A stretch of DNA of 64,000 nt from an uncultured Acidobacteriota bacterium (GTDB taxonomy: Bacteria; Acidobacteriota; Thermoanaerobaculia; UBA5066), in assembly GCA_963779415.1 (NCBI GenBank), contig CAVZYA010000003.1, positions 224,001 through 288,000 of the forward strand, written 5' to 3'. The notes under the pieces are model-generated. The model ran no database searches. It saw nothing but the letters and a program-made list of their open reading frames with translations, and had not been told where the DNA came from. Made by a program: the position numbers and the translations under genes. The first letter of the stretch is position 1, and the number at the start of each line of letters is the position of its first letter. Shown in pieces: positions 1,440-15,872 of the stretch.

Positions 1440-3503
1440 ATGCGTCGCTCTCTCTTCTCGCCATCCTCGCCGTTCCAGCTCTCCTCACGGTCGTCGTGGC
1501 GCTGACCGCCCGTCGCCGCGGGCCCCGCCCGGGCGCCCGGCAAGGCCGATCGACTCCGCCAACTTCGACACGGCCGCGCTCCGTGCGCCGACTTCTACCA
1601 GTACGCGGACGGCGGCTGGCTGAAGGCGAACCCGATCCCGGCCGACAAGGGGCGCTTGGGGCTCGTTCGAGGAGGTCGTGGAGCGGAACCGCGCCATCGA
1701 GAAGACGATCCTCGAGGAGACCTCCGCGAAGACCGACTGGCCGAAGGGAAGCGTCCGGCAGAAGGTGGGCGACTTCTACGCCGCCGGAATGGACGAGGCG
1801 GCGATCGAGAAGGACGGCACGAAGTTTCTCGCCCCCTGGCTCGAAAAAGTGGACGCGCTCTCCTCGGCCGCCGACCTCCCGAAGCTTCTCGCCGAGCTCC
1901 ACTCCCGGCGCCTGCCGGCGGGCTTCGGCCTCTACATCGCGCAGGACCAGAAGGAGTCGACCCGGTACATCCCCATCCTGGGGCAGGGGGGCCTCGGCCT
2001 TCCCGATCGGGACTACTACCTCAAGGAGGACCCGAAGTCGAGGGAGATCCGCGAGCAGTACGCCGCGCACGTCGCACGGATGTTCGCTCTTCTCGGGGAC
2101 CCCTCCGACGCCGCGAGAGCGGAGGCGGACGCCGTCTTCGCATTCGAAACGAAGCTCGCGAGGGCCTCGCGGACGCGCGTCGAGCTGCGCGACCCGCAGA
2201 AGAACTACAACAAGCGGAGCCTCGCCGATCTCGCGAAGGAGGCGCCCGGCTTCGACTGGAAGGCGTACCTCGTCGCGGTCGGGATCCCGGAAGGGCAGGA
2301 GCTGAACGTCCGGCAGCCCGACTTCTTCAGGGCGTACGCGGAGATGGCCTCCGCAGAGCCGCTCTCCACCTGGAAGACCTATCTGAAGTGGCACATCCTC
2401 CACGGCTCGGCAACCCTTCTTCCGAAGCGGTTCGACGAGGAGAACTTCGACTTCTACGGCCGGACCCTGCGCGGCGTCCCGCAGCAGGAGGAGAGGTGGA
2501 AGCGCGTCCTCGCGGCGACCGACCAGGCGATCGGGGAGGCGCTGGGGCAGCTCTACGTCGAGAAGGCCTTCAGCCCGAAGTCGAAGGAGCGGATGATCGT
2601 CCTCGTCGAGAACCTGCGCGCCGCCCTGAAGGACCGGATCGAGGCGCTTCCCTGGATGGGGCCCGAGACGAAGAAGGCCGCCCTCAGGAAGCTCGCCGCC
2701 TTCGGCGTGAAGATCGGCTACCCCGACAAGTGGCGCGACTATTCCGCTCTCGAGATCACGCGCACCTCCTATTTCGAGAACGTTCTCCGCGCGCACGCCT
2801 TCGAGACGAAGCGGAACCTGGCGAAGCTGGGCAAGCCGATCGACAGGACCGAGTGGGGGATGACGCCCGCCACCGTCAACGCCTACTACAGCCCGACGAT
2901 GAACGAGATCGTCTTCCCGGCGGGAATCCTCCAGCCGCCGTTCTTCTACGCCGACGCGGACGACGCCGTGAACTACGGCGGCGATCGGCGGCGTCATCGG
3001 GCACGAGATGTCGCACGGCTTCGACGACTCCGGGAGCCAGTACGACGCCGACGGGAACCTGAAGAACTGGTGGAGCGGAGAGGACCGGAAGGCGTACGAA
3101 GTCGCGGACCGCCCTCATGGTGAAGCAGTTCGACGGCTACAAGCCCCTTCCCGACCAGGCGATCAACGGGAAGCTGACGCTCGGCGAGAACATCGGCGAC
3201 CTCGGCGGACTGAAGATCGCGTATGCCGCGCTCGCGAAGGCTCTCGGAAAGGATCCGGTCACGGCCGCGCCAATCGACGGGTTTACTCCCGCCCAGCGCT
3301 TCTTCCTCAACTGGGCGACCGTCTGGCGGAACCAGATCCGCGACGACACGCTCCGCGTCAACCTGAACACCGATCCGCACTCGCCGGGACGCTTCCGGGT
3401 CCTCGGGCCGCTCTCGAACCTCCCGGAGTTCCAGGCCGCCTTCGGCTGCGGGGCGGGGACCGCCATGAACCGCCCCGAGGCGGAACGTCCGAGCATCTGG
3501 TAG
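1440..3503 (+). CDS. M13 family metallopeptidase (PepO/neprilysin-like), exported; several frameshifts
   Basis: AGGAGG RBS before ATG 1440. [35 protein letters not shown] (HExxH) and GENIGD motifs are spread over ORFs 1678..3123, 3008.. and 3117..3503. Confidence 0.93.
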
Positions 3504-3507
3504 CGGC

Positions 3508-4969
3508 GTGACGCTCCTTCTCCGCTGGGGCCGCCGGCTCGCCGTCGCCGCCGTCCTCGTCTGGGCGACGCTCGTCGTCGGCGGGGCGTTCGGCGCCCGC
3601 TCCCGCCTCCCCGACCTGAAGCCGTGGCACCGGCTCGTCCCGAAGGCCGAACTGAGAGCCTCCGACCTCGGGGAGACGGCGACGCTCGCGGACTATCTTA
3701 AGCGCGAGGACGAGACCTTCGCCGAGGTCAAGACGCGAAATCGGGGCACGGCTCACGCCGGCGGACCGCGTCGTCTCGAACCGCTACTTCGACGGGAGCC
3801 CGCTCGACCCCGACAACGCGGCGAAGAACTGGAACCGGACCTTCGAGCTGGTCCCGGAGACGATTCGCGGCGGCGTCCTCCTCGTCCACGGCCTCACGGA
3901 CTCGCCCTACAGCGTCCGGGCGCTGGCCGAGATCTACCGGGCGAACGGCTTCTATGCCCTCGCTCTCCGGATGCCGGGACACGGCACCGTGCCGGGGGCG
4001 CTGACCGAGGCGACGTGGGAGGACTGGCTCGCGGCGGTGAAGCTCGGCGCGCGGCACGTCCGGTCGCGGATCGGCGAGAAGGCGCCGCTTCACCTCGTCG
4101 GCTACTCGAACGGCGGGGCGCTCGTCCTCTCGCACGCCCTCGAGGCGCTCGACGATCCGAAGCTTCCGAAAGCCGACCGCCTCGTCCTCCTCTCGCCGAT
4201 GATCGGCGTCACCCCGTTCGCCGCCCTCGCGCGGACGGTCGGCCGGCTCGGCGTCTTCCCGTACTTCGAGAAGGCGAAGTGGACCGACGTCCTCCCCGAG
4301 TACAACCCGTACAAGTACAACTCCTTCCCCGCGAACGCCGGATGGCAGACGTGGAAGCTGACCTCCCGGCTCGAGGGACGGCTGAAGAGGCTGGCGGAGG
4401 CGGGACGCGCGGGCGAGATCCCGAAGGTTCTGACCTTCCAGTCACTCGTCGACGCGACGGTCTCGACCCCCGCCATCCTAGACCGGCTCTATTCGCGCCT
4501 CACGAAGGAAGGGAGCGAGCTCGTCCTCTTCGACGTGAGCCGGACCTCGAACCTGAAGCCCTTCCTGAAGCCCGACGGCGACGCGCTCCTCTCCCGAATC
4601 GCCGGCGACAAGGGCCGGAGGTACGTTCTGACCGTCGTCACGAACGAGTCTCCCGATACCCGCGAGGTCGCCGCGAAGAGCTACGTGCCCGGGGCGGCCG
4701 AGCCGGACGTGAAGCCCCTCGGCCTCTCCTGGCCCGCCGACGTCTACTCCCTCTCCCACATCGCCCTCCCCTTCCGGCCCGACGACCCCCTCTTCGGGAT
4801 CGATCCGGCGCTCGCCGGGACGGGCGGGTTCCACCTCGGCCTCCTCGCGCCGCGCGGCGAGAAGTCGATCCTCGTCGTCCCCGAGGAGGTCCTGATGCGG
4901 ATCTCCTCGAACCCGTTCTTTCCTTTCGTCGAGTCCCGGGTTCGCGAGGCCATCCTGCCCGCGAACTGA
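3508..4969 (+). CDS. Membrane-anchored alpha/beta hydrolase (frameshift near 3735)
   Basis: N-terminal TM segment; [10 protein letters not shown] oxyanion motif, GYSNG nucleophile elbow and SLSHIALP catalytic His region. Confidence 0.85.
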
Positions 4970-4998
4970 CGCGCGACCGCCCCTCACTTCCTGACCGC

Positions 4999-6676
4999 TC
5001 AGCCTCCTCGCCCCGCCCGCTCGAGGAGCTGGTCCGCCGTCCGGAGGGCCAGAGCCGTTATGGTGAGGGAGGGCGAATCCCCCGCTCCCGCTCGAAGGGA
5101 CGAGCGATCCGTCGGCGAACGCCAGATTCGGGATCTCATGGCAGAAGCCGTCGGCGCCGGAGACCGAATCCGCCGGGCCAGTCCCCATCCGGCACGTCCC
5201 GAGGACGTGTGCGGTCAGAAAGCGATCGAGGGAGGAGTATTCCTCCAACGTCTCGGCTCCGGCGGCCGAAAGGAGCGCCCGCCCCCGCTCCACCATCTCT
5301 CTGAGAAGTCGCTTCTCGTTCTCTCCGAGGCGCGACGTGATGCGTGCCACGGGGAGCCCCTGCGCGTCCGTGAGGGACGGATCCAGATCGACGAGCGTCC
5401 CCGGGTTCGGCAGCCAGTCGCCGATTCCGAGGAGGCCGACGGCGCGCCCGAAGACTTCCGCCATCCGATTCTGGTGTTCCAGCCCGAAGCCCGGGACGAG
5501 CCTTCCTGCGTAAGCCGCCGGGCCGCGCAGCCCGGCCGCGCCGTGGGCCGTGGAGAGTCGGAAACCCCCGACCGCGCCGCTTCTTCGGAGGCTCGGGACC
5601 GACTCGTCCCAGGCCGTCCCGTCGATCGGGACGCCCCGGTGCGAGTCGACCCTTTCCGGCAGGAGAGCCGTGCTCTGCCAGAGAAGCGTCTCGGTCAGAT
5701 TCAAACCGACCTGACCGGAGCCGTTCGCGAGGCCCTGCGGGAAGAGTCTCGACCTGGAGAGCAGTAGGAGCCTCGGCGTCTCGACGGCGCCTCCCGCGAG
5801 AACGACGAACCTCGCTTCGAGCCTCTGAAGCGTTCCCTCCCGGTCCATGAAGACGACGCCGGATGCGCGGCCCTTTCCGTCGACCTCGATCCGCGTGGCC
5901 GCGCTCTCGGTTCGAAGCTCCAGCCGACCCGTCCGGAGCGCTTCCGGCAGGAAGGTCACGTCGGCGCTTCCCTTGTCGCCGATGGGGCACCCCTCGGTGC
6001 ACGAGTTGCAGTAATTGCATGCCGGCCGCCCCTCGAAGGGCTCGGAGAGGATCGCGAGCGAATTGGGGACGAGCGTCAGCCCGACGGCCGAGAATGCCTT
6101 CGAGAGTCGGGTGCTGGCATACGAGAGCCGGTGAGCGGGGAAAGGTGGAGCGTTCGCTCGCGGCCGGCAGCGGATTTCCATGGGCGCCGCCACCCCCATA
6201 CGCCGTTCGGCGAGTTCGTAGTACGGCTCGAGATCCTGATACGAGATGGGCCAGTCGACGCCCGCGCCGAGAAGCGAGGACATTCTCAGGGAGTCGGGGT
6301 GATACCGGTGCGCCTCTCCCTGGAAGCGAAGCGTGCTTCCCCCGACGCCCCGGACGTGCGCGTACTGAAGGTAGAGCCGCCGGTTCCCGCGCTGCCGACC
6401 CGCCACGAGGTCGTGAGAGCGGTAATCGTCCCAGCCCGCGTCGATCTCCTGGGCGGGCCCGAAGCCGTGGCGGGGCTTGCCGCGCTCGTCTGAGTCGGGG
6501 TCGAAAGGAAAACCGCGGATCTCGAAATCGGGCGACGTCTGCGGGTAGTCGCGTTCGGGCCGGTACCGCCTTCCCGCCTCCAGGAGCGTGACGCGCATCC
6601 CCCGGGTCGTCAGCCGCCAGGCCGCCGCGAGGCCGCCCGCGCCGGCGCCGACGACGATGACGTCCGTCTCAGACAC
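4999..6676 (-). CDS. GMC family flavoprotein oxidoreductase with Fe-S motif (frameshift near 5085)
   Basis: GTG start, DVIVVGAGAGG FAD motif, RGVGGST, CNYCNSCTEGCP, HVLGTCRMG. The C-terminus PSLTITALALRTAD follows a frame change, with TGA at 4999-5001. Confidence 0.92.
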
Positions 6677-7850
6677 CGGGCTTCTCGGCGAAGTCCGGAT
6701 AGCCCTCCGGCTGCGGGGCGTGCGTGAACCCCACGACTTTCCAGGCTGCCGGGCTTGCGTAATGGATCTCCATCGCCCGGTTCCGGACGCTCTCATAGAA
6801 GAAGCGCGGAAGAGTTCCTTCCCCGGCGCGGGCGATCTCTCGCACGAGATCGGCGCGCCTCGCAGGGTCGAGCTCGCGAAACGACGGCGACCCGGCGCGC
6901 TTCGCGCCGCGATCGAGGAGCTCGACGCCTTCGACGAGCGCCCGCCGCGTCTGGCGCCGCTCCTCCAGTTCGGGCAGAAGCTTCGGAAGGACTCCCGTCG
7001 CCCGATGCCCCGGGAACCGGCCGTCGGGGATCAGCGTGTCCAGAAAGGCTTCCAGCGTCCTCTGCCCCGAAGCGTCCAGTCGCCCCGGGAGAAAGACCCT
7101 CTTGAGGATCCAGGCTCCGACGGCGAACGCGGCCGTTCCCAGGAGACCCTGGAGCAGGTCGCGGCGCGACCATCCGGAGGACGCGGCCGGCTCGGAACGT
7201 GGAGCCACGCCGCCCGAGACGACGAGAAGAAGGGCGACGAGGAAGACGCCGCCGGCGCATCCCGCGACGAACAGCGCCCAGGCCGCCGGGGAGCCGAGCG
7301 AAGCGGCCCGCGCCGCGACCTTCGCCACGTCGTCTCCGCGCAGGTCGAACGCCGAGGAGAATCCCGCGACCCGGGCCAGCCTCGTGATCGGGATGGACGC
7401 GGCTTCGTACGCGTCTCCCGTCAGCGACGCGACGGGCTGGAGCGCCGCCGCGAGGGCTGCTCCGAAGAAGACCGCGCTCCTCGCTCGGGCGGCTCGACGC
7501 GCCAGCGCGGCCCCGATCGTGGCCAGGAGAACGTGAGGGAGGGCGACGGTCACGAAGTAGGACACGTCCCCGGCGGGAGCGAATCCGGAGAGCCGTCCCG
7601 CGTACTCTCCCCCCGCCGAGATCCACGAAAAGTGCCGCTCGAGGAGCCGTCCTCCGAAGGCAGGTGAGATCTCGAGGCGAGTGACGGAGCCCCCCGTCGC
7701 AGCGCACCCCGCCACATGGAGCAGCTCGTGGACGGGGACGAGAATCCAGAGGCTCGCGACGAATCCGGCGAGGAGCCACGCGAGTCGCAACGCCCTGTTC
7801 TGGAGGACGGCGCCCAGCGCCGAAAGCTGGTCTTCGAGAGTTCTCTTCAG
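6669..7850 (-). CDS. Fusion of a HExxH polytopic membrane (M50-like metalloprotease) domain and a gluconate 2-dehydrogenase subunit 3-like domain
   Basis: PVHELLHVAG in the first TM, a later LTGDAYE, about 4 TMs, then SRRDLL + hydrophobic segment, TLEAFLDTLIP...PG and HYASPAAWKVVGF (subunit 3 pattern). The probable start is CTG 7850, overlapping the upstream TGA; the start is uncertain. Confidence 0.65.
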   Translation of the reverse strand: MKRTLEDQLSALGAVLQNRALRLAWLLAGFVASLWILVPVHELLHVAGCAATGGSVTRLEISPAFGGRLLERHFSWISAGGEYAGRLSGFAPAGDVSYFVTVALPHVLLATIGAALARRAARARSAVFFGAALAAALQPVASLTGDAYEAASIPITRLARVAGFSSAFDLRGDDVAKVAARAASLGSPAAWALFVAGCAGGVFLVALLLVVSGGVAPRSEPAASSGWSRRDLLQGLLGTAAFAVGAWILKRVFLPGRLDASGQRTLEAFLDTLIPDGRFPGHRATGVLPKLLPELEERRQTRRALVEGVELLDRGAKRAGSPSFRELDPARRADLVREIARAGEGTLPRFFYESVRNRAMEIHYASPAAWKVVGFTHAPQPEGYPDFAEKPGV

Positions 7851-8020
7851 CGTTTCTTGCGTCGGATCGCGACCACGCCCGCCCCCATCAGCGCGAGCCC
7901 AAGGGTGATCAGCCCCGCCTCGCCGAGCGCCGGAATCCGATCCGCACGGGGCACGCCCGCCCACGACACGCCTGGCAGCAGGACGATCACGAGCAGCGCC
8001 AGCTTCACAGCCTTCTTCAT
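7847..8020 (-). CDS. 57-aa microprotein: signal peptide + IPTL-CTERM-like sorting signal
   Basis: MKKAVKLALLVIVLLPGVSWA-GVPRADR-IPALGEAGLITLGLALMGAGVVAIRRKKR*. AAGGGGGG RBS upstream. Below the ORF-track length cutoff. Confidence 0.8.
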   Translation of the reverse strand: MKKAVKLALLVIVLLPGVSWAGVPRADRIPALGEAGLITLGLALMGAGVVAIRRKKR

Positions 8021-8131
8021 GTCGGTCCCCCCTTTTCGGGGAGACTATCGTGAACGGGACCTCTCCGACAACGCGAGAAGTTCCGTTCCCGGAGAATCCC
8101 GGCCCACATCAGGAATGACCTGACCTGGCCA

Positions 8132-8839
8132 TCAGCTTTTCGGGGACCAGCGCTTGGTCCGGCCGAGGACGCCCTTGATCAGCCACGGAAGCACGGCCAG
8201 AAGCGCCAGAACGCCGACGAGCGGAAGGGACCAGAGATCGGCCGGGTTCTCGACCTCCCCGAGATGAGTCCCCGCGTAGACGTAGAGCAGATAGCGGGGC
8301 AGGAGCCCGAGGAGGGAGTAGACGAGGAACGGCACGAAACGGACCGGGCTGATCGCCAGGATCACGTTCGTCACGGAGAACGGAATCACGGGGAGCAGCC
8401 GCAGCGTCAGGATGAAGTAGGAACCCTCCCGCTCCAGCCCCTCCAGCAGGTGGGGAAACCGGCGCCGCATCCTCTCTTCGACGAGATCCCATAGCAGATA
8501 GCGAAACGAGACGAACGCCACCGCGGAGGCCAGCGTGCTTCCCACGGCCACCAGCAGCAGCCCCTCCCGGAAGCCGAACAGAAGCCCGGCGGAGAGATTC
8601 ATGACCGTGCTGCCGGGCAGGCCGAAGAGTCCGAGAACCAGGTAAGCAGCCATCCAGACGCCCGGCGCCATGAGCGGACGGGCGTCCGCCCACTCGATCA
8701 GGGCGTCCTTGTGCGCCACGAGGTTGTCGAAAGTCAGGAGGCGGAGGCCCCCTGCGAGAAGGAACGCCACCCCGCCGGCCACGATCAGCACCAGCATCAG
8801 CAGGCGAAGCGGAGTCAATTCAGGCCATGGCGGCTTCAT
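8132..8839 (-). CDS. TVP38/TMEM64 (VTT/DedA) family membrane protein
   Basis: LPGSTVMNLSAGLLFG, LRLLPVIPFSVTN and SLLGLLP family motifs. Confidence 0.92.
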   Translation of the reverse strand: MKPPWPELTPLRLLMLVLIVAGGVAFLLAGGLRLLTFDNLVAHKDALIEWADARPLMAPGVWMAAYLVLGLFGLPGSTVMNLSAGLLFGFREGLLLVAVGSTLASAVAFVSFRYLLWDLVEERMRRRFPHLLEGLEREGSYFILTLRLLPVIPFSVTNVILAISPVRFVPFLVYSLLGLLPRYLLYVYAGTHLGEVENPADLWSLPLVGVLALLAVLPWLIKGVLGRTKRWSPKS

Positions 8840-9351: not shown

Positions 9352-12300
9352 TCACTTCTCGTGGAAGAGCCGATCGGCCGGGACCGGCTCGAGCGGCTTG
9401 CCGGGGGCGTCCATCTTCAGCTCCAGGCCGACCATGTACTCGCTCTGGAACCAGCGGAGCTGGACCGGGTGGAGCCCGGGTTTCAGCGCCAGCTCGGCCC
9501 GGCGGCTGATGAAGTCGATCTGGTCGTTGAGGATCGCCCGCTCGCCGTCCACCTTCAGCTCGCTGGCATCCCGGGAACGAAGCGAGAGCGTGTAGAGCCC
9601 CTCGACGGGGATGGAGAGGAACCCCTCGCAGACGAGACCGAAGTGCCCTTTGGGGCGTTCGGCCGGAATGCCGACCTCCTTCATCGTGATCTTCCCCGTC
9701 GGCTTCAGCGCATCGAACTCCGGGAGCTTTCGCCATTCCCCTTCGTAGACCTTGCAGGAAAGGCCCGGGGCGAGCGATGCGGCCGGGACGGCTACGGACG
9801 CGTGCGGCGTCTCCTTCGTCACCTTCGCGGACGCGACGAACCGGTCGTCGAGCCCCGGCGCGAAGGCTCGCGCCTTCACGGTCGCCGTCCTGTCGAGAAC
9901 GAGAGGCCCACGGTAGACCTCCGACGTCGCGCCCGGCTCCGATCCGTCGAGCGTGTACCGGATCGTCGCCCCCGGTGTCGGGGACGTCAGCGTCATCGTC
10001 GTCCTGTCGATGAAGAGCTTCCCGGAGGCGTCGACGTGGACGAGGGTCGCGGTCGCCGGTTCGGTCAGGCTTCCGGCGAGGACGGCGTCGTCGTTCGGAC
10101 CCTTGACCGCGGTGACGGCCAGGATCCGGATCCGGTCGTCCTTCGGAAGCGTCAGCGTCTTCGCGCCGGGAGGAAGGTCGATCCGGAGGCGGAAGAGATG
10201 GGTGTAGACGTACGCCTCGTTTTCGCCGCGGGCGCCGTGCCGATGCGTCCCGACCCAGGCAACCGGGACGTCCTTCACATAAGCCGGGGCTATCTTCGCG
10301 GGATCTTCCTGCCGTTCGCCGCCGACGATGCGGCTGTTCCATTGGCCGACCGGCTCGGCCCAGTCCGGAACGGTGAGCGTCGTCGAGGTTCCGTCCACCT
10401 CGAAGCGGTCCGGCCGGTCGCCCCCCACGGCCGCGGCGAGAAGGTAGAGGCGGCTCCATTCCCCCTTCGGAAGCAGGATCTTCTGGCCGCGGCAGACCAG
10501 GACGTTCGGCTTCCCGGGCTCCTGCGGGCCGGTCCGGAGCGGGATGCCGCCCGAGACCACGGTTGCCGGAAGAAGCTCTCCCGCAATCGAGTGACCCGCG
10601 CCGTCGAAGTCGCCGTCACGGCGTGCCTCGTCGCGGCTGATGCCGTCGAGGTCGTACGGCAGGTCGACCGGCACGACCACGGGAGGAGCCACGGCGGCCG
10701 GCGCCGGCCCGAGCGTCACCGCCAGGGTCCGCGGCCGGTATGGCGCGAAGGAGAGATTCACGACCCCGTTCTTCAGCGCGAGAGCCGGGCGCGACGGCTC
10801 GGCGATGGCTCCCCCGGTGCCGTTCGGACCGAGCGGCTCCTCGGCGCCGTTCAGCTCACGAAGAGCGAGGACCGGCCTCGCGAACCGGAGCGTCACGCCG
10901 TCGACCTTCCTCCCGGAAAGCTCCTGCAGCCGGACGACGATCTCGTCGCTCTCCTCGGCTCTCTTCAGTGCGCGGACGGCTACGGAAGGCTCGCCGGCGC
11001 CAGCCCCTTCGAGCCGAAGAAGCGAAAACGACTTCCCGAGCGCCCCATCGTGCGACGGCGTCTGGAAGGCGAGGAGTGGCTGGTTCAGCCGGTCTCCTTC
11101 CGCGGCCACGCCGCTCCGGAAGTCGCCCGCGTGCCCGGCGACGGCCATCAGGACGTGGTGATGCCCGAGATCGTTCGACCCCTGCTCGGAGATCCAGCTC
11201 CAGCTCGGGATGACGCGCGGGGTGTGGACGAGCGAGAGGCGGAGCGTCCTCTCGTCGGGCCTGTCCCACCCGTGCCGGCTGTCGTTCAGGACCGCGACGC
11301 CGAACGCGCCGCCCGCGTCGGCGAGGTCCGCCCACTGCTGTGCCGGGACCTCGTAGAGGTTCGGCCGGTCCGTCCCCCGTTCGACGGTGCCGAGGCCGAG
11401 GTCGTACGTGGCGTTCCTGTTCGCCGCCGCGAGCGGGAAGGCGGCCTTGAGGAGCGTCCCCTTCGTCCGCCAGTCGACGTCGGTCGCGATCTCGACTCGG
11501 CTCCCCGCGCCGGCGGCCGCGAGCCGGATCCGCTGCGTGAAGGTCGACCCCGCGGCCCTCCGGACGACCTCGAGAGAGACCCGCGCCGGCCCGCTCTCGA
11601 CGACACGGATCGCGGCAGGGCCGGCGACGACCTCGCGCGGAGGCGCCATCAGGGGGGCGTACTCCACCTCCCACGCCGCCCACTTTCGGGGCTCGTCATC
11701 GAAGAGCTGCAGCCGAAGCGGCGCCGAGAGAAGCTCGCGGTTCAGGCTCTTGTCGAAGATCGAGGCCACGTCCCCCGCGTCGTCCAGTGCGACTCGGTAC
11801 CGCGCGTTCTCGAGTCCCTTCGCGCTCACGGAGAGTTCCCCCGCCGCCGGGGGTTTCCTCGAAGGAAGGATGCGAAAGACCGAAAAGGACAGAGAGGGAA
11901 CGTCGGCGAGGAAGACGATCCTGGCCGCCGAGCCGGTCACCCGCTCGATCTGCGCGGGGACGTCTCGTCCGTCAGGACCAATGACCCGCACGCCGTCCGG
12001 AGCTCCGCCTTCGAAGCGTATTTCCCCCTCGACGACGTCCTCTCTGGCAATCCCGAGCGGATTGAAAACGACGAGGGGAATCCCTTCCCCTCTCGTGTCG
12101 AGGACTCGGGATACGGAGCCGGCGGAGGTCGCGAGGACGTCCCCGAACTGGTTCGCCGCGATCGCCTCGTCGTTCCACGAAAAGACGTAGGCCTCGGGGA
12201 TGCTCGTCCCCGTCAGGTCGTCGTGGAACTGGTGCCAGAGGACGCGCGTCCACGCCTGGCGAAGCTCCTCGCGCGGATAGGGCGCCCCACCGAGCCACGA

Positions 12301-13323
12301 CGCGGCCACGGCCGCCCCTTCCGCCGCCGCGGCGAGACGCTGGTTCAGGCGGTTGTACGTCTTCATCGCCGCCTGCGAGGTGTAGCAGCCGGCGCCGTGC
12401 GACGTGAGGAGGAACTCGCCGCGGTACCGCTGAAGGCCCGCGACCCCCTTCCCGTCCTCGCGCGCCATCAGGTCGCGGGCGAGCCGGTCGGGTCCGTCGG
12501 AGAGGACGCGAAGCGGCCCCGGCCCCTGGAGGCTCTTCTCGAGATTCGCGACCGACGCGTCGTTCGGCGCCATCCCGACGTCGCCCGTCCCGAAGTACCG
12601 GAAGGCCGCCGGGAGCCCCGACATCGCCTTTTGCCGGTCGATCGTCGCGTAGACGTCCGGGTCGAGCGTCAGGTTTCCCTTGATCTCCGAGGCGTAGTCG
12701 CCCGGATTGAGCGCCGCGATCAGCGTCGACCCGTCGACCCCCTCCCAGAGGCCGATGTCGAACGGGATCCGGATCGACGAGCCCCACGTCAGCTTCTGCG
12801 TGGAGAAGGCGACGAGGCCGCTGTGCGCCGCGATCGCCGGGAGCGCGAAACCGAAGCCGAAGCAGTCCGGAAGGTAGACGTCGCGCGAGGTCACCCCAAG
12901 CTCGCGCCGGAAAAAGCCGTTGCCGTAGAGCGCCTGCCGGATGAGGGACTCCGGCGAAGGGAGGTTCGTGTCGACGGCGTCCACCCAGCTCCCGGCCACT
13001 TTCCAGCGCCCCGCGCGGACGTACGTCTTGAGCTTCTCCCACTCCGCCGGGTAGTACTCCTTCATGAGGCCGTACCGGAAAGCCCCCTCGAAGCTGAAGA
13101 CGTAGCCCGGGTACTTCTCGAAGAGGGCGAAATTGTCCCGGAGCGTCGCCGGAAGGAAGTCGTCGATCGTCTCCTGCACGGTCCAGCGCCACTGCGTGTC
13201 GAGGTGGGCGGTCGCGACGACGTAGAGTGACCGGTCGGGGGGAGAGGCCGGCGGCGCGTCCGCGGCCGCGAGGGGCCGAAGCGCGGAGAAGAGAAGCACG
13301 ACGAGCGCGAGACGGGATCGCAT
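9352..13323 (-). CDS. Secreted GH38 alpha-mannosidase with C-terminal Fn3-associated and PA14-like domains
   Basis: Signal peptide MRSRLALVVLLFSALRPLAAA; AHLDTQWRW, YLPDCFGF and HQFHDDLTGTS GH38 motifs; IRYTLDGSEP followed by a PA14-like tail. Confidence 0.92.
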   Translation of the reverse strand: MRSRLALVVLLFSALRPLAAADAPPASPPDRSLYVVATAHLDTQWRWTVQETIDDFLPATLRDNFALFEKYPGYVFSFEGAFRYGLMKEYYPAEWEKLKTYVRAGRWKVAGSWVDAVDTNLPSPESLIRQALYGNGFFRRELGVTSRDVYLPDCFGFGFALPAIAAHSGLVAFSTQKLTWGSSIRIPFDIGLWEGVDGSTLIAALNPGDYASEIKGNLTLDPDVYATIDRQKAMSGLPAAFRYFGTGDVGMAPNDASVANLEKSLQGPGPLRVLSDGPDRLARDLMAREDGKGVAGLQRYRGEFLLTSHGAGCYTSQAAMKTYNRLNQRLAAAAEGAAVAASWLGGAPYPREELRQAWTRVLWHQFHDDLTGTSIPEAYVFSWNDEAIAANQFGDVLATSAGSVSRVLDTRGEGIPLVVFNPLGIAREDVVEGEIRFEGGAPDGVRVIGPDGRDVPAQIERVTGSAARIVFLADVPSLSFSVFRILPSRKPPAAGELSVSAKGLENARYRVALDDAGDVASIFDKSLNRELLSAPLRLQLFDDEPRKWAAWEVEYAPLMAPPREVVAGPAAIRVVESGPARVSLEVVRRAAGSTFTQRIRLAAAGAGSRVEIATDVDWRTKGTLLKAAFPLAAANRNATYDLGLGTVERGTDRPNLYEVPAQQWADLADAGGAFGVAVLNDSRHGWDRPDERTLRLSLVHTPRVIPSWSWISEQGSNDLGHHHVLMAVAGHAGDFRSGVAAEGDRLNQPLLAFQTPSHDGALGKSFSLLRLEGAGAGEPSVAVRALKRAEESDEIVVRLQELSGRKVDGVTLRFARPVLALRELNGAEEPLGPNGTGGAIAEPSRPALALKNGVVNLSFAPYRPRTLAVTLGPAPAAVAPPVVVPVDLPYDLDGISRDEARRDGDFDGAGHSIAGELLPATVVSGGIPLRTGPQEPGKPNVLVCRGQKILLPKGEWSRLYLLAAAVGGDRPDRFEVDGTSTTLTVPDWAEPVGQWNSRIVGGERQEDPAKIAPAYVKDVPVAWVGTHRHGARGENEAYVYTHLFRLRIDLPPGAKTLTLPKDDRIRILAVTAVKGPNDDAVLAGSLTEPATATLVHVDASGKLFIDRTTMTLTSPTPGATIRYTLDGSEPGATSEVYRGPLVLDRTATVKARAFAPGLDDRFVASAKVTKETPHASVAVPAASLAPGLSCKVYEGEWRKLPEFDALKPTGKITMKEVGIPAERPKGHFGLVCEGFLSIPVEGLYTLSLRSRDASELKVDGERAILNDQIDFISRRAELALKPGLHPVQLRWFQSEYMVGLELKMDAPGKPLEPVPADRLFHEK

Positions 13324-13355
13324 ACAGGGCTCCCTTCGGAAGTTCCTTCGGTTCC

Positions 13356-15872
13356 TCACGGCGCCGCTTCGCGGATCCGGTCGACGACGAATGCCTCGTC
13401 CGTCGCGGCGAGAAGCGACTCCCGAAAGTCGTCGTTCATCAACCTCCGGGAGAGCGAGGCGATGAGGCGCAGGTGCGCGTCGTCCGCAGCGTCTTCGGCC
13501 ACCGCGATCAGGATCGCCATCCGGACCGGCTCTCCGTCCGCAGAGTCCCATTCGAGAGGGGGTTCGCACCCGAGGACGGCGACTGAAGTGACACGGACGT
13601 CCCGCGATCTCGCGTGCGGGATGGCGACACCGAAGCCGACGGCGGTCGAAGCGGTCGACTCGCGCCGCCAGACGGCTTCCTCGAACCGGTCCGGGTCGGC
13701 GACCCGGTTCGCGACGTGGAGAAGGTCGACCATCTCCCGGATCGCCTCTTCGCGGCTCCGGCTTCGCGCCCGGAGCCGGACCGTCCCGGCGGCGACGAGC
13801 GACCGGTCCCTCTTCGACTCGGCGAAGGCCCGGACGAGCGCCTCCACCTCGGCGGCGCTCTCCTTCGAGAGCGCGTCGTCGAGGAGGGCGCGGCACTCGC
13901 CGAAGCCGGAGCGGGCGAGCGCCGCCTTCACCGCCGGGATGCCCGGGGGCGCGAGGCTGATCTCGTCGAGACCGAGGCCCGCGAGAAGCGGCGCGGCCAG
14001 CGGGCCCCGTCCCATCTCGCCGCAGAGGCCGATCCACCGGCCGACGCGATGCGCGTCGTCGACGATCTGCTTCAGGAGCCGGAGAAACGACGGGTGGAGG
14101 GAGCTGTAGAGGCGCGAGACCCTCTCGTTGTCCCGGTCGGCCGCGAAGAAGTACTGCGCGAGGTCGTTCGAGCCGATCGAGAAGAAGTCGGACTCCTTCG
14201 AGAGAGTCCCGAGCGCGAAAGCCGCCGAAGGGATCTCGATCATGATCCCGACCTCGATTCCGGCATCGTGCGCCACGCCTTCCCGGGCGAGGTCGGCCGA
14301 AAGACGCCGGACGAGCGCGCGCACTTCCCGGATCTCCTCGACCGAGGCGACCATCGGGACCATGATCCTCACCCTTCCGAATGCCGACGCTCGGAGAAAC
14401 GCCCGGATCTGGGCGGAGACGACCTCCCGGTGCTCGCCGTACATCCGGACGGCCCGGTAGCCGAGAAACGGGTTCCGCTCCGCGGCGAGGCCGAGGTACG
14501 GGATCGGCTTGTCGCCGCCGGCGTCGAGCGTCCGGAAGATCACCGGCCTTCCCGCCGCCATCCGGACCGCCTCGGAATAGACGTGCGCCTGCTCTTCCTC
14601 CGAGGGCGCCTGCCGCCGATTCATGAACAGGAACTCGGTCCTGAAGAGACCGATCCCCTCGGCACCGCTCGCCAGCGCGGGACGGACCTCCTCGAGAGAG
14701 GCGACGTTGGCGGCCACCTCGAGGAGCCGGCCGTCGGCGGTCCGGCCGGGTGCCGACCGGAACGCTTCGAGGCGGCTCCGGATCCTGCCGAGCTTCTCCA
14801 TCTCGGCCTCGTAGAAACGGCGGACGGCGGGAGGCGGGTTCACGACGACGAGCCCGCGCTCGCCGTCCACGATGGTCTCGCTTCCCGGAGGAACGGCCGC
14901 GCGGACGTCGCCGAGGCCCGTCACGCACGGAATTCCCGCCGCGCGGGCCAGGATGACGGTGTGCGAAGTGCGGCCCCCCGCGCCGAGGGCGATCCCTTTC
15001 AGGTGTCTCCGGTCGAGGGAGAGAAGGCCGGACGGAGCCAGGTTCTCGGCCACGAGGACGGCGTCCTCGAAGAGGGTCAACGGCGCGTCTGCGGAGTCGC
15101 CGGAGAGAACGCGGACGAGCTGTCCCGCGAGGTCACGCAGGTCGAGGGCCCTCTCCTCGAGGGAGTCGCTTCCCGAAGCCCGGAGGATGCCGGCGAAGTG
15201 CCCGACGGTCACGAGGACGCCGCGCGAGGCCGCCACGCCGTTTACGCGAATCTCGTCCTCGATCCGCGACCGGAACTCGGGATCGTCGAGGATCGAGAGA
15301 TGGGCGGCGAGGATCGCCCGCTCCGTCTCGTTCGCGGCACGGGCCGAGCGCGCCTCGAGCGCCCCGGTCGTCCGGGCGAAGGCGCGATCGAGCTTCGCGA
15401 TCTCATCTTCGGCCGAGATGGCCTCCTCCGAAGAGAAGTCGGAGAAGGCCGCGATGCTCTCCCCGAAGACGGCGCGTCCCCGCGCGATCCCGCCGCTGAC
15501 CGCGACGGCGCGAAGGACGCATTCCCCCGCGGACGCGAGGGCGCGAGGGAGCGCCGAGGTGGCCTCGGGGCCGGGCGGAGCAACCGGGAGAGCCTCTCCG
15601 GAGATCGGAAGGTCGTCGCGAACGAAGCGGCCGAGCGCCTCGGCCGCGGCCTCGTCGTCGGGCCCCTCGACCCGGAGGACGCAGGGGTCTCCCTGCCGCG
15701 TCAGGGTTCCGACGAGCGCCAACGTGCTCTTCGCGTTGGCCGTCCGCCCGCTCCGGAGGTTCACGAACGTCGCCGCGGAGAGAAAGCCGGAGGCCGCGGC
15801 GCGAAGGAGGCTGGCCGGCCGCGCATGGAGACCGCCCGGAAGGGAAAAGGCGAACTCGATCTCTAAAGCCAC
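13356..15872 (-). CDS. ptsP: Multiphosphoryl transfer protein HPr-EI-EIIA(Fru), PtsA/FrwA-like
   Basis: GLHARPA (HPr His), GRTSHTVILAR (EI His), GIGLFRTEF, SIGSNDLAQY, GLCGE and a C-terminal GVAIPH (EIIA His). Confidence 0.95.
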   Translation of the reverse strand: MALEIEFAFSLPGGLHARPASLLRAAASGFLSAATFVNLRSGRTANAKSTLALVGTLTRQGDPCVLRVEGPDDEAAAEALGRFVRDDLPISGEALPVAPPGPEATSALPRALASAGECVLRAVAVSGGIARGRAVFGESIAAFSDFSSEEAISAEDEIAKLDRAFARTTGALEARSARAANETERAILAAHLSILDDPEFRSRIEDEIRVNGVAASRGVLVTVGHFAGILRASGSDSLEERALDLRDLAGQLVRVLSGDSADAPLTLFEDAVLVAENLAPSGLLSLDRRHLKGIALGAGGRTSHTVILARAAGIPCVTGLGDVRAAVPPGSETIVDGERGLVVVNPPPAVRRFYEAEMEKLGRIRSRLEAFRSAPGRTADGRLLEVAANVASLEEVRPALASGAEGIGLFRTEFLFMNRRQAPSEEEQAHVYSEAVRMAAGRPVIFRTLDAGGDKPIPYLGLAAERNPFLGYRAVRMYGEHREVVSAQIRAFLRASAFGRVRIMVPMVASVEEIREVRALVRRLSADLAREGVAHDAGIEVGIMIEIPSAAFALGTLSKESDFFSIGSNDLAQYFFAADRDNERVSRLYSSLHPSFLRLLKQIVDDAHRVGRWIGLCGEMGRGPLAAPLLAGLGLDEISLAPPGIPAVKAALARSGFGECRALLDDALSKESAAEVEALVRAFAESKRDRSLVAAGTVRLRARSRSREEAIREMVDLLHVANRVADPDRFEEAVWRRESTASTAVGFGVAIPHARSRDVRVTSVAVLGCEPPLEWDSADGEPVRMAILIAVAEDAADDAHLRLIASLSRRLMNDDFRESLLAATDEAFVVDRIREAAP

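Follow-up and report, generated by a model that had tools for sequence, protein, structure and literature searches.

Organization of the locus

The window considered here, a stretch of 64,000 nucleotides (G000:C3:224001-288000), belongs to a genome of 4.36 Mb assembled in three contigs with a G+C content of about 70%, and its nearest matches are metagenome-assembled genomes of Thermoanaerobaculia (Acidobacteriota). Three overlapping genes on its minus strand, together referred to below as the module, encode a miniprotein of 57 amino acids (aa) with a C-terminal tag of the IPTL-CTERM type, a membrane protein in which a domain with an HExxH motif is fused to a subunit-3 domain of gluconate 2-dehydrogenase, and a flavoprotein of the GMC family. 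The genes lie where an initial annotation of this sequence had placed them, and both overlaps between them (7847-7850 and 6669-6676) are present. This arrangement is far beyond chance, recurring at 16 other loci. The features of the module are as follows.

8026..8034, minus strand: Shine-Dalgarno-like G-rich run, 6-14 nt 5' of the miniprotein ATG (read from the sequence)
7847..8020, minus strand: miniprotein gene, 57 aa (open reading frame, hidden Markov model scores, family alignment)
7847..7850, minus strand: CTGA junction, in which the miniprotein TGA overlaps an in-frame CTG, where conservation in the HExxH frame begins (16 loci compared)
7206..7850, minus strand: four-helix HExxH membrane domain, site-2-protease-like, residues 1-215 (alignments, hydropathy, models, fold matches)
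7089..7169, minus strand: internal twin-arginine motif and fifth helix, then Lys/Arg (sequence, hydropathy, comparison with PMC5449189)
6669..7064, minus strand: gluconate 2-dehydrogenase subunit-3 domain through to the stop codon (Pfam match)
4999..6676, minus strand: GMC flavoprotein gene, beginning at GTG 6676 and sharing 8 nt with the end of the preceding gene (open reading frame, hidden Markov models, structure-sequence matches)
5079..5083, minus strand: run of five G residues, one more than in locus L007 (four), shifting the frame 27 codons before the natural stop

The G-rich run corresponds to the single ribosome-binding site that had been noted ahead of the gene set. The promoter proposed at 8044-8071 found no support, as no sigma-70-like promoter was detected in 4700-8400 (0 found, 0.0 expected); the scan of the same interval gave two terminator-like sites, both within the middle gene, a number equal to the shuffle expectation.

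Conservation and gene order of the module

Two sets of loci were compared, 80 from species-representative genomes and 73 from metagenomes, and the miniprotein profile was surveyed across 201 genomes of the class Thermoanaerobaculia; the tallies for these 201 genomes include a few unpublished ones, and all the loci described here come from the others. Protein searches recovered the fused form of the middle protein (350-440 aa, 50-81% identity) together with many stand-alone HExxH proteins of 220-280 aa. Miniprotein genes were found at 17 loci (the window, L007-L010, L012, L098-L102, L147, L150 and L169-L172, with L098/L099/L169, L101/L170 and L008/L147 being near-duplicates), whose hosts are Acidobacteriota (Thermoanaerobaculia) as well as Binatia-type genomes and metagenomes. 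An HExxH gene lies directly downstream of the miniprotein at 16 of the 17 loci, and a GMC gene forms part of the gene group at all 15 loci with enough flanking sequence, L147 and L150, contigs of about 1 kb, standing outside this count. The conserved synteny to be expected from the initial annotation was thus found: in the clade nearest to the HExxH domain of the window, a miniprotein gene directly precedes that of the domain at 16 loci, and GMC is a neighbour at 15 out of 15. Three matches that passed a loose filter (L020, L120 and L142), lying 161-773 nt from the HExxH motif and devoid of the miniprotein build, were excluded.

The genes occur in four orders: miniprotein(s), the fusion of the HExxH and subunit-3 domains, and GMC (the window and L007-L010); miniprotein, HExxH, subunit 3 and GMC in separate frames (L100); subunit 3, GMC, miniprotein(s) and HExxH (L012, L098, L099 and L102, and partly seen at L101, L169, L170 and L172); and, in genome G166, a row of three miniproteins followed by subunit 3 and GMC, where an adjoining HExxH gene is missing. 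No cytochrome c gene was seen at any module locus. The module is rare, full-length miniprotein matches being present in 5 of the 201 genomes; the same-genus genome G057 (99% complete) contains neither a full-length miniprotein nor a member of the HExxH family, and exosortase H (XrtH) is present in it.

A quick maximum-likelihood tree was built from 61 rows (16 near and 45 randomly kept distant ones, L147 and L150 with fewer than 170 residues being omitted). In this tree the miniprotein-linked HExxH domains fell within one clade of 15 rows with a support of 100 in the Shimodaira-Hasegawa-like approximate likelihood ratio test (SH-aLRT); the same clade also holds L095, the upstream region of which is cut by the contig end, and a sub-branch of L011, L096 and L097 without a miniprotein. 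In this sub-branch (L011, 4070-7818; L097, 2953-6653; L096, 3-1157) the HExxH gene is followed by that of a molybdopterin oxidoreductase of about 990 aa with a twin-arginine signal, and at L096 the gene of a NikR-type nickel regulator stands ahead of it. Judging by the neighbours of the miniprotein-linked domains and of the sub-branch, the HExxH domain there always stands beside a redox enzyme exported by the twin-arginine translocation (Tat) pathway. Among the more distant HExxH loci of the species-representative set, a miniprotein was found at 0 of 75. In the distant stand-alone family, amidase-like, PilZ-like and actin-like genes, named by reading example sequences, were seen at 28-34 of 74 loci, encoded on the opposite strand. 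Such neighbours look like lineage synteny and offered no functional lead. A second stand-alone HExxH paralogue was observed downstream on the same strand at 19 of the loci examined among L013-L086.

Taken together, the conserved gene linkage, the occurrence of the parts in both fused and split form and the coupled junction described below make it very likely that the module is a physical and functional unit.

The miniproteins

The initial annotation had regarded the 57-aa open reading frame as a signal peptide followed by an IPTL-CTERM-like sequence, and the latter is upheld by two curated models, both exceeded at their cut-offs (PF18203, 22.1 bits against 20.8; TIGR04174, 24.4 bits against 20.5); in the whole-genome TIGR04174 scan the tag scored 25.1 bits. 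The midcut-by-XrtH model (NF033207) gave 17.0 bits at a cut-off of 45, with only model positions 26-64 covered. The window miniprotein consists of a probable signal peptide (a hydrophobic segment, residues 1-21) ending at an Ala/Gly boundary, a variable spacer of 7 residues, the tag (residues 29-55 of 57, nt 7856-7936) and a basic tail.

Altogether, 25 miniproteins (24 of them distinct) are encoded at the 17 loci in 1-3 tandem copies per locus, and all 25 share the same build: a hydrophobic leader and the invariant Ala/Gly boundary come first, a variable spacer leads on to the motif x-P-[ATV]-[LM]-x-[EDQ]-x-G, and a helix rich in Gly is followed by a basic tail. As parsed, the spacer comprises 7 residues in 18 of the 25 and up to about 11-14 in the others. 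Hydropathy analysis revealed two hydrophobic segments, and in the family alignment Gly residues are conserved along the helix of the tag, with an almost unvarying acidic residue beside it. A set of 5.8 billion proteins holds 40 clusters of such miniproteins (45-93 aa), and several of them bear the NCBI name of IPTL-CTERM sorting domain-containing proteins.

Two further IPTL-CTERM matches over the cut-off are present in the genome under study, one at the end of a large protein and the other at the end of a second mini-ORF on contig 2 (G000:C2:1273036-1273209; L004 1483-1776, minus strand). In the latter, a short spacer links a hydrophobic leader to an IPTL-like tag (20.8 bits); it lacks the Ala/Gly site and has no HExxH or GMC neighbour. 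A homologue of the product of the gene downstream of this mini-ORF adjoins the module at the metagenome locus L099 (3983-4939, minus strand).

The HExxH membrane domain

The fusion described in the initial annotation was recovered in the middle gene (6669-7850), which combines an HELLH motif (nt 7716-7730) with a match to Gluconate_2-dh3. Asp/Glu motifs of the HExxH domain are located at residues 145-149 and 170-174; H41, E42, H45, C49, D146 and E149 do not vary among 107 sequences, and R171-D174 hardly do. The first ~215 residues of the window protein gave no Pfam or NCBIfam match over the cut-off. The expected affiliation with Peptidase_M50 or M50B was not borne out, since the window protein matched only PF02163 (E 0.73, 9.6 bits at a cut-off of 27.2). 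Its relatives come somewhat closer: 86 of 114 match PF13398 (Peptidase_M50B) at E up to 1 (best 1.3e-5), 68 of 114 give weak matches to PF11667 (DUF3267; best E 0.028), and a protein atlas offers a weak M50B lead for the domain in Acidobacteriota clusters.

Structures were predicted with a mean predicted local distance difference test score (pLDDT) of 90.7 for the full-length protein and 95.7 for the domain alone. A Foldseek search against the PDB returned nothing at E <=0.001 for either model, and a profile of the domain alignment had 0 matches among PDB sequences at E up to 10. In an all-versus-representatives structural search, the top four matches of both models were site-2 proteases, namely RseP of Kangiella (7w6z_A), SpoIVFB (8vjl_A), S2P of M. 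jannaschii (3b4r_B) and RseP of Aquifex (9j83_A). The placement of the invariant HExxH on the first helix, a set of three beta-strands separating helices 1 and 2, and the weak Pfam matches of the relatives point in this direction as well. The domain is therefore described here as site-2-protease-like and is not assigned to family M50, because the window protein remains under every cut-off.

The CTGA junction and the probable start of the HExxH protein

The codon at 7850-7848, with which the middle gene probably begins, is the non-canonical CTG, which corrects the initial annotation. The frame is open from 7964 to 6669, and the conservation among relatives begins at this CTG codon; the sole canonical in-frame starts are GTG at 7964, deep within the miniprotein gene, and TTG at 7790. 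CTGA is found at all 16 junctions where an HExxH gene follows the last miniprotein (13 loci and 3 more), with the CTG 37-38 codons ahead of the V-P-x-H-E motif and the miniprotein stop 108-111 nt before the HExxH motif at each of the 16 loci. Among the six non-terminal miniprotein copies, CTGA occurs in three and a TAG stop in two. At 5 of the 13 loci the frame contains no ATG, GTG or TTG from its preceding stop codon as far as the HExxH motif, and at the remaining ones any canonical codon after the stop lies 11-24 residues before the motif. Such downstream starts would delete a conserved N-terminal helix (residues 2-16), which is present in both models with a pLDDT of 85 and 92 for this block. 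From these comparisons we infer that the HExxH protein begins by termination-coupled re-initiation on CUG.

A programmed -1 frameshift leading from the miniprotein into the HExxH protein was also considered, as the two frames differ by -1 and the topology of the fused product would be workable. It is unlikely, and re-initiation on CUG is preferred to it, because the 12 junctions compared share no slippery heptamer. Public gene calls of the fusion (including P0004, P0005 and P0019) have a GTG start placed after the HExxH motif, so that products of 265-298 aa (265-294 aa for these three), named solely as subunit-3 family proteins, are annotated and the protease-like half is left unannotated. A start at CUG, if real, would account for this truncation and for the loss of the HExxH motif from the annotated products.

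Subunit-3 domain and predicted membrane topology

The subunit-3 domain proposed in the initial annotation was recognized by PF13618 (34.8 bits against 23.4) at residues 263-375; a profile search of this part alone against PDB sequences gave a match at chance level only. By hydropathy, the protein contains helices at residues 20-38, 99-117, ~124-144 and 193-211 (values 2.0, 2.0, 1.6 and 2.75), followed by a weaker fifth one at 231-254, the least hydrophobic of all (~1.5). The loop between helices 2 and 3 consists of five residues, three of which are Arg. The twin-arginine motif (residues 228-233, ~nt 7152-7169) is internal, being located after the four helices, between the HExxH domain and the subunit-3 part, and together with helix 5 it is read as a Tat-type signal-anchor.

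The N-terminus of the HExxH domain is presumably cytoplasmic, because the twin-arginine motif must face the cytoplasm for Tat and the loop between the second and third helices is Arg-rich. With this N-in orientation, the HExxH motif, the beta-strands and the Asp/Glu motifs would be placed at the periplasmic face. RseP of E. coli is described as an N-out/C-out protein with a cytoplasmic beta sheet, the substrates of which have their N-terminus in the cytoplasm (PMC11864173). Compared with that description, the HExxH domain would be inverted, its metal face being periplasmic and the beta sheet of RseP cytoplasmic. Proteins inserted by both Sec and Tat are characterized in another study by helices in even number that precede a twin-arginine motif, by a final helix of weak hydrophobicity, and by positive charges ahead of an exported domain (PMC5449189). 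The middle protein, with its four helices, twin-arginine motif, weak helix 5 and Lys/Arg directly after it, fits these features.

The GMC flavoprotein

The identity of the third gene as a GMC flavoprotein gene stood (GMC_oxred_N, PF00732, 52.7 bits; GMC_oxred_C, PF05199, 48.2 bits); its reading frame proved to be broken. The closest solved relatives are the alpha subunit of the flavin adenine dinucleotide (FAD)-dependent glucose dehydrogenase of Burkholderia (8hdd_A, 6a2u_B; E 6e-46) and the large subunit of fructose dehydrogenase. Three Cys residues of the GMC protein, which has a Cys-rich segment of 3Fe-4S type at nt 5987-6019, align with the Cys-rich segment of these relatives, a segment which we take to bind a 3Fe-4S cluster. 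It can be regarded as practically established that the GMC protein is of the glucose/fructose-dehydrogenase type with FAD and a 3Fe-4S cluster, and that its partner is a Tat-signal small subunit, fused to or encoded beside a four-helix HExxH domain, the core of which is probably site-2-protease-like.

Concerning the frame, L007, which is 92% identical, has four G residues in place of the run of five at 5079-5083; removal of one base restores a GMC-type C-terminus and the stop at 4999. The extra G probably arose in assembly. The M13 peptidase gene of the window (1678-3503, plus strand) is likewise split, into three frames, by shifts of a single base near 2975-2985 and near 3095-3110, and its counterpart at L007 is one uninterrupted frame. 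Assembly indels are suspected on the grounds of these three shifts and the intact state of the M13 gene in L007, and probably account for the frame breaks in both genes.

Surroundings of the module

Upstream of the module, on the same strand, lie the genes of a DedA/VTT-domain membrane protein (PF09335; 8132-8839) and of a RidA-type protein (PF01042; 8950-9333), and then a very long open reading frame (9352-14928), the first several hundred codons of which seem to be out of frame. L007 retains the large upstream gene; the RidA and DedA genes were not seen at that locus.

Exosortase H and the origin of the tag

The initial annotation had noted that exosortase H is missing near the tag, which is true for the window; the genome encodes it on the same contig, about 72 kb past the window end (G000:C3:360010-360435; TIGR04177, 123.9 bits at a cut-off of 86). 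The premise of an orphan sorting signal thus fails. XrtH exceeds the cut-off in genomes G000, G001, G005, G014, G141, G166 and G111, and the best exosortases of three Binatia-type genomes score 65-77 bits, below it; of the 10 module-carrying genomes other than that of the window, 7 are counted as exceeding it. Since XrtH is over the cut-off in 154 of the 201 genomes of the class, its co-occurrence with the module is uninformative. Large proteins whose C-termini are hit by the miniprotein profile occur in 86 of the 201 genomes, and hence this kind of tag is an ordinary feature of the lineage. To our knowledge, the acceptor of exosortase cargo and the mode of its attachment are still unknown.

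Proposed functioning of the module and alternative explanations

We tentatively favour, at somewhat less than even odds, the view that the module is an accessory operon for a periplasmic dehydrogenase that is held at the membrane by an anchor of protease-like type and is accompanied by small membrane clients of its own. The miniprotein would be a client of the HExxH domain, most likely a substrate cut near the juxtamembrane motif and, less likely, a helix that stays bound and plugs or completes the anchor. Sec or YidC would insert the first four helices, and Tat the fifth helix with the folded subunit-3/GMC pair. Removal of the signal peptide would leave a miniprotein of about 36 residues in the N-out/C-in orientation, with its P-x-L-x-E-x-G motif at the same membrane face as the metal site and oriented relative to the first helix of the enzyme as substrates of RseP are. 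Possessing their own ribosome-binding site and 1-3 gene copies, the miniproteins would be produced in excess, and the HExxH protein would be made at a low level through re-initiation on the CUG overlapping the miniprotein stop; cleavage would then free a peptide of 9-15 residues and leave a stub. A client, and above all a substrate, is suggested by the number of gene copies, by the weak start of the enzyme and by the agreement in membrane face and in orientation.

Several facts weigh against this proposal. The strongest of them is the form found in G166 (L198, G166:C150:14000-21800, minus strand), where three tandem miniproteins are followed directly by a stand-alone subunit-3 gene and a GMC gene. 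A scan of the minus strand of this 7.8-kb stretch detected no HExxH motif, and the sole HExxH family member of G166 detected by a whole-genome profile search is on another contig; the link between miniprotein and dehydrogenase therefore needs no protease gene in cis. All 11 module-carrying genomes checked encode exosortase H or a close relative of it, which could itself be the enzyme acting on the tag. The window domain stays under every Pfam cut-off, the GMC frame of the window is broken, the CUG start is deduced from sequence, and with a spacer so variable the released peptide has no evident role that would depend on its sequence.

The G166 form is readily accommodated if the miniprotein is a minimal cargo of exosortase H, which would cut the tag and move the N-terminal peptide of 9-15 residues to its usual acceptor, with the HExxH domain only anchoring the dehydrogenase or clearing the N-out stub. 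Both curated IPTL-CTERM models, the NCBI naming of several miniproteins, the same tag on large proteins and the XrtH genes of the seven genomes listed above are in line with this explanation. Yet XrtH is too common in the class for its presence to tell much, the Binatia-type exosortases stay below the cut-off, and neither the CTGA coupling to the HExxH gene at 16 of 16 junctions nor the constant GMC and subunit-3 neighbours are explained, so that we hold it to be unlikely, if worth serious attention. Somewhat less probable still is that the miniprotein stays uncut as a stable membrane partner, a plug similar to BofA or an anchor subunit. BofA offers a precedent, as its second helix is placed in the SpoIVFB cleft (bioRxiv 10.1101/2021.07.09.451828), and the miniprotein resembles it in having two hydrophobic segments; the conserved Gly residues and the adjoining acidic residue of the tag helix also speak for such a partner. 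Moreover, a GMC/subunit-3 pair without a cytochrome c gene needs another membrane partner, and 17 of 114 relatives of the HExxH domain weakly match the fumarate reductase anchor subunit D (best E 7.7e-4), although composition alone may account for these matches. The miniprotein has no conserved ligands for redox cofactors, however, its invariant Ala/Gly site argues for removal of the first hydrophobic segment, and 1-3 copies with their own ribosome-binding site beside a CUG-started partner suit an excess substrate better than a 1:1 subunit.

The miniproteins might instead be precursors of small periplasmic peptides in the manner of natural products, released by the HExxH protease and modified or used by the tethered flavoprotein. 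A spacer that varies in sequence and is constrained in length between the invariant Ala/Gly site and the conserved motif, the tandem copies, and a protease-like gene and an oxidoreductase counted as always adjacent would all agree with this; but the core has no conserved modifiable residue, no radical-SAM, cyclase or transporter genes are conserved near the module loci, and the GMC subfamily is known for sugar substrates, which makes such a role highly improbable. A related and bolder version of the proposal, improbable in our view, is an exosortase-independent processing system, in which the inverted site-2-protease-like enzyme would cut the IPTL-type tags of mini-precursors at the periplasmic face and free variable peptides starting with Gly, the tethered dehydrogenase would modify or use these peptides, and the enzyme level would be set by obligatory re-initiation on CUG. 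We give practically no credence to an artefact of gene calling or assembly as the source of the miniprotein frame or of the fusion. The single-base frame errors in the GMC gene (one) and the M13 peptidase gene (two) and the frequent absence of the HExxH part from public annotation could raise this suspicion, which is refuted by the comparative data, that is, by the miniproteins with conserved motifs and frame at 17 loci, the 40 clusters in the 5.8-billion-protein set and the fusion in the independent assemblies L007-L010.

Returning to the accessory operon with small membrane clients, the dedicated processing module suggested by the initial annotation is supported as far as the conserved linkage of miniprotein, HExxH and GMC genes is concerned and loses its premise of an orphan signal; the suggested processing of glycans receives no direct support. 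If the proposal is true, a site-2-protease-like enzyme would work at the outer membrane face on N-out helices, the middle protein would represent a new class of Sec-plus-Tat-inserted proteins with a passenger enzyme, and the junction would be a conserved case of a CUG start overlapping a stop codon. A natural cargo of about 7-14 residues would also be the smallest possible exosortase probe, the mass of its processed form revealing the acceptor directly.

Comparison with known systems

The combination of miniprotein, protease-like anchor and dehydrogenase appears to be undescribed. In the literature searched on IPTL-CTERM and exosortase H/XrtH, we found no description of such miniproteins or of the gene set; the IPTL-CTERM tag is mentioned for an S-layer protein of Methylomirabilis, exosortase H is mentioned in a preprint, a myxosortase preprint mentions neither IPTL nor XrtH, and the word 'gluconate' does not occur in the main text of PMC5449189.

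The dehydrogenase part is most similar to the FAD-glucose dehydrogenase of Burkholderia cepacia (6a2u, 8hdd) and to fructose dehydrogenase (7w2j), which are composed of a GMC large subunit, a Tat-signal small subunit and a cytochrome c subunit. The GMC protein of the module matches their large subunits over the full length (E 6e-46 to 3e-41) with the three Cys residues aligned. Unlike them, the module shows no cytochrome c gene at any locus and always includes miniprotein genes, and its small subunit, with an internal Tat motif, is fused or linked to the protease-like four-helix domain.

With the site-2 proteases of family M50 (RseP, SpoIVFB and S2P of M. jannaschii) this domain appears to share the HExxH motif in the first core helix, strands of beta structure that separate helix 1 from helix 2, and, on helix 3, a motif with Asp that follows a Pro. 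Many of its relatives weakly resemble Peptidase_M50B/DUF3267, whereas the window domain is under every curated cut-off. In contrast to these proteases, it has no PDZ or CBS domain and is linked to a redox enzyme, and its probable topology is inverted, with the metal site periplasmic and the candidate substrate N-out/C-in. The pairing of a small protein having two hydrophobic segments with a site-2-protease-like enzyme recalls SpoIVFB and BofA; there is no sequence relation, the gene order and coupling differ, and the small protein of the module bears a sorting tag and what looks like a cleavable signal peptide.

The dual Sec-Tat proteins covered by PMC5449189 (the actinobacterial Rieske protein, Sco3746, the polyferredoxin and the YkuE family) resemble the middle protein in helix number, twin-arginine motif, weak last helix and charges. 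The exported domain of the module, in distinction from those described there, binds no cofactor and would carry a folded GMC passenger. Finally, the module is related to the IPTL-CTERM/exosortase H system (TIGR04174, TIGR04177) by a tag exceeding the curated models, an XrtH gene in the genome and the same tag on large proteins, and departs from it in that its miniproteins are nearly free of cargo, with about 7-14 residues between the signal-peptidase site and the tag, and are encoded beside a dehydrogenase and a protease-like gene rather than beside xrtH.

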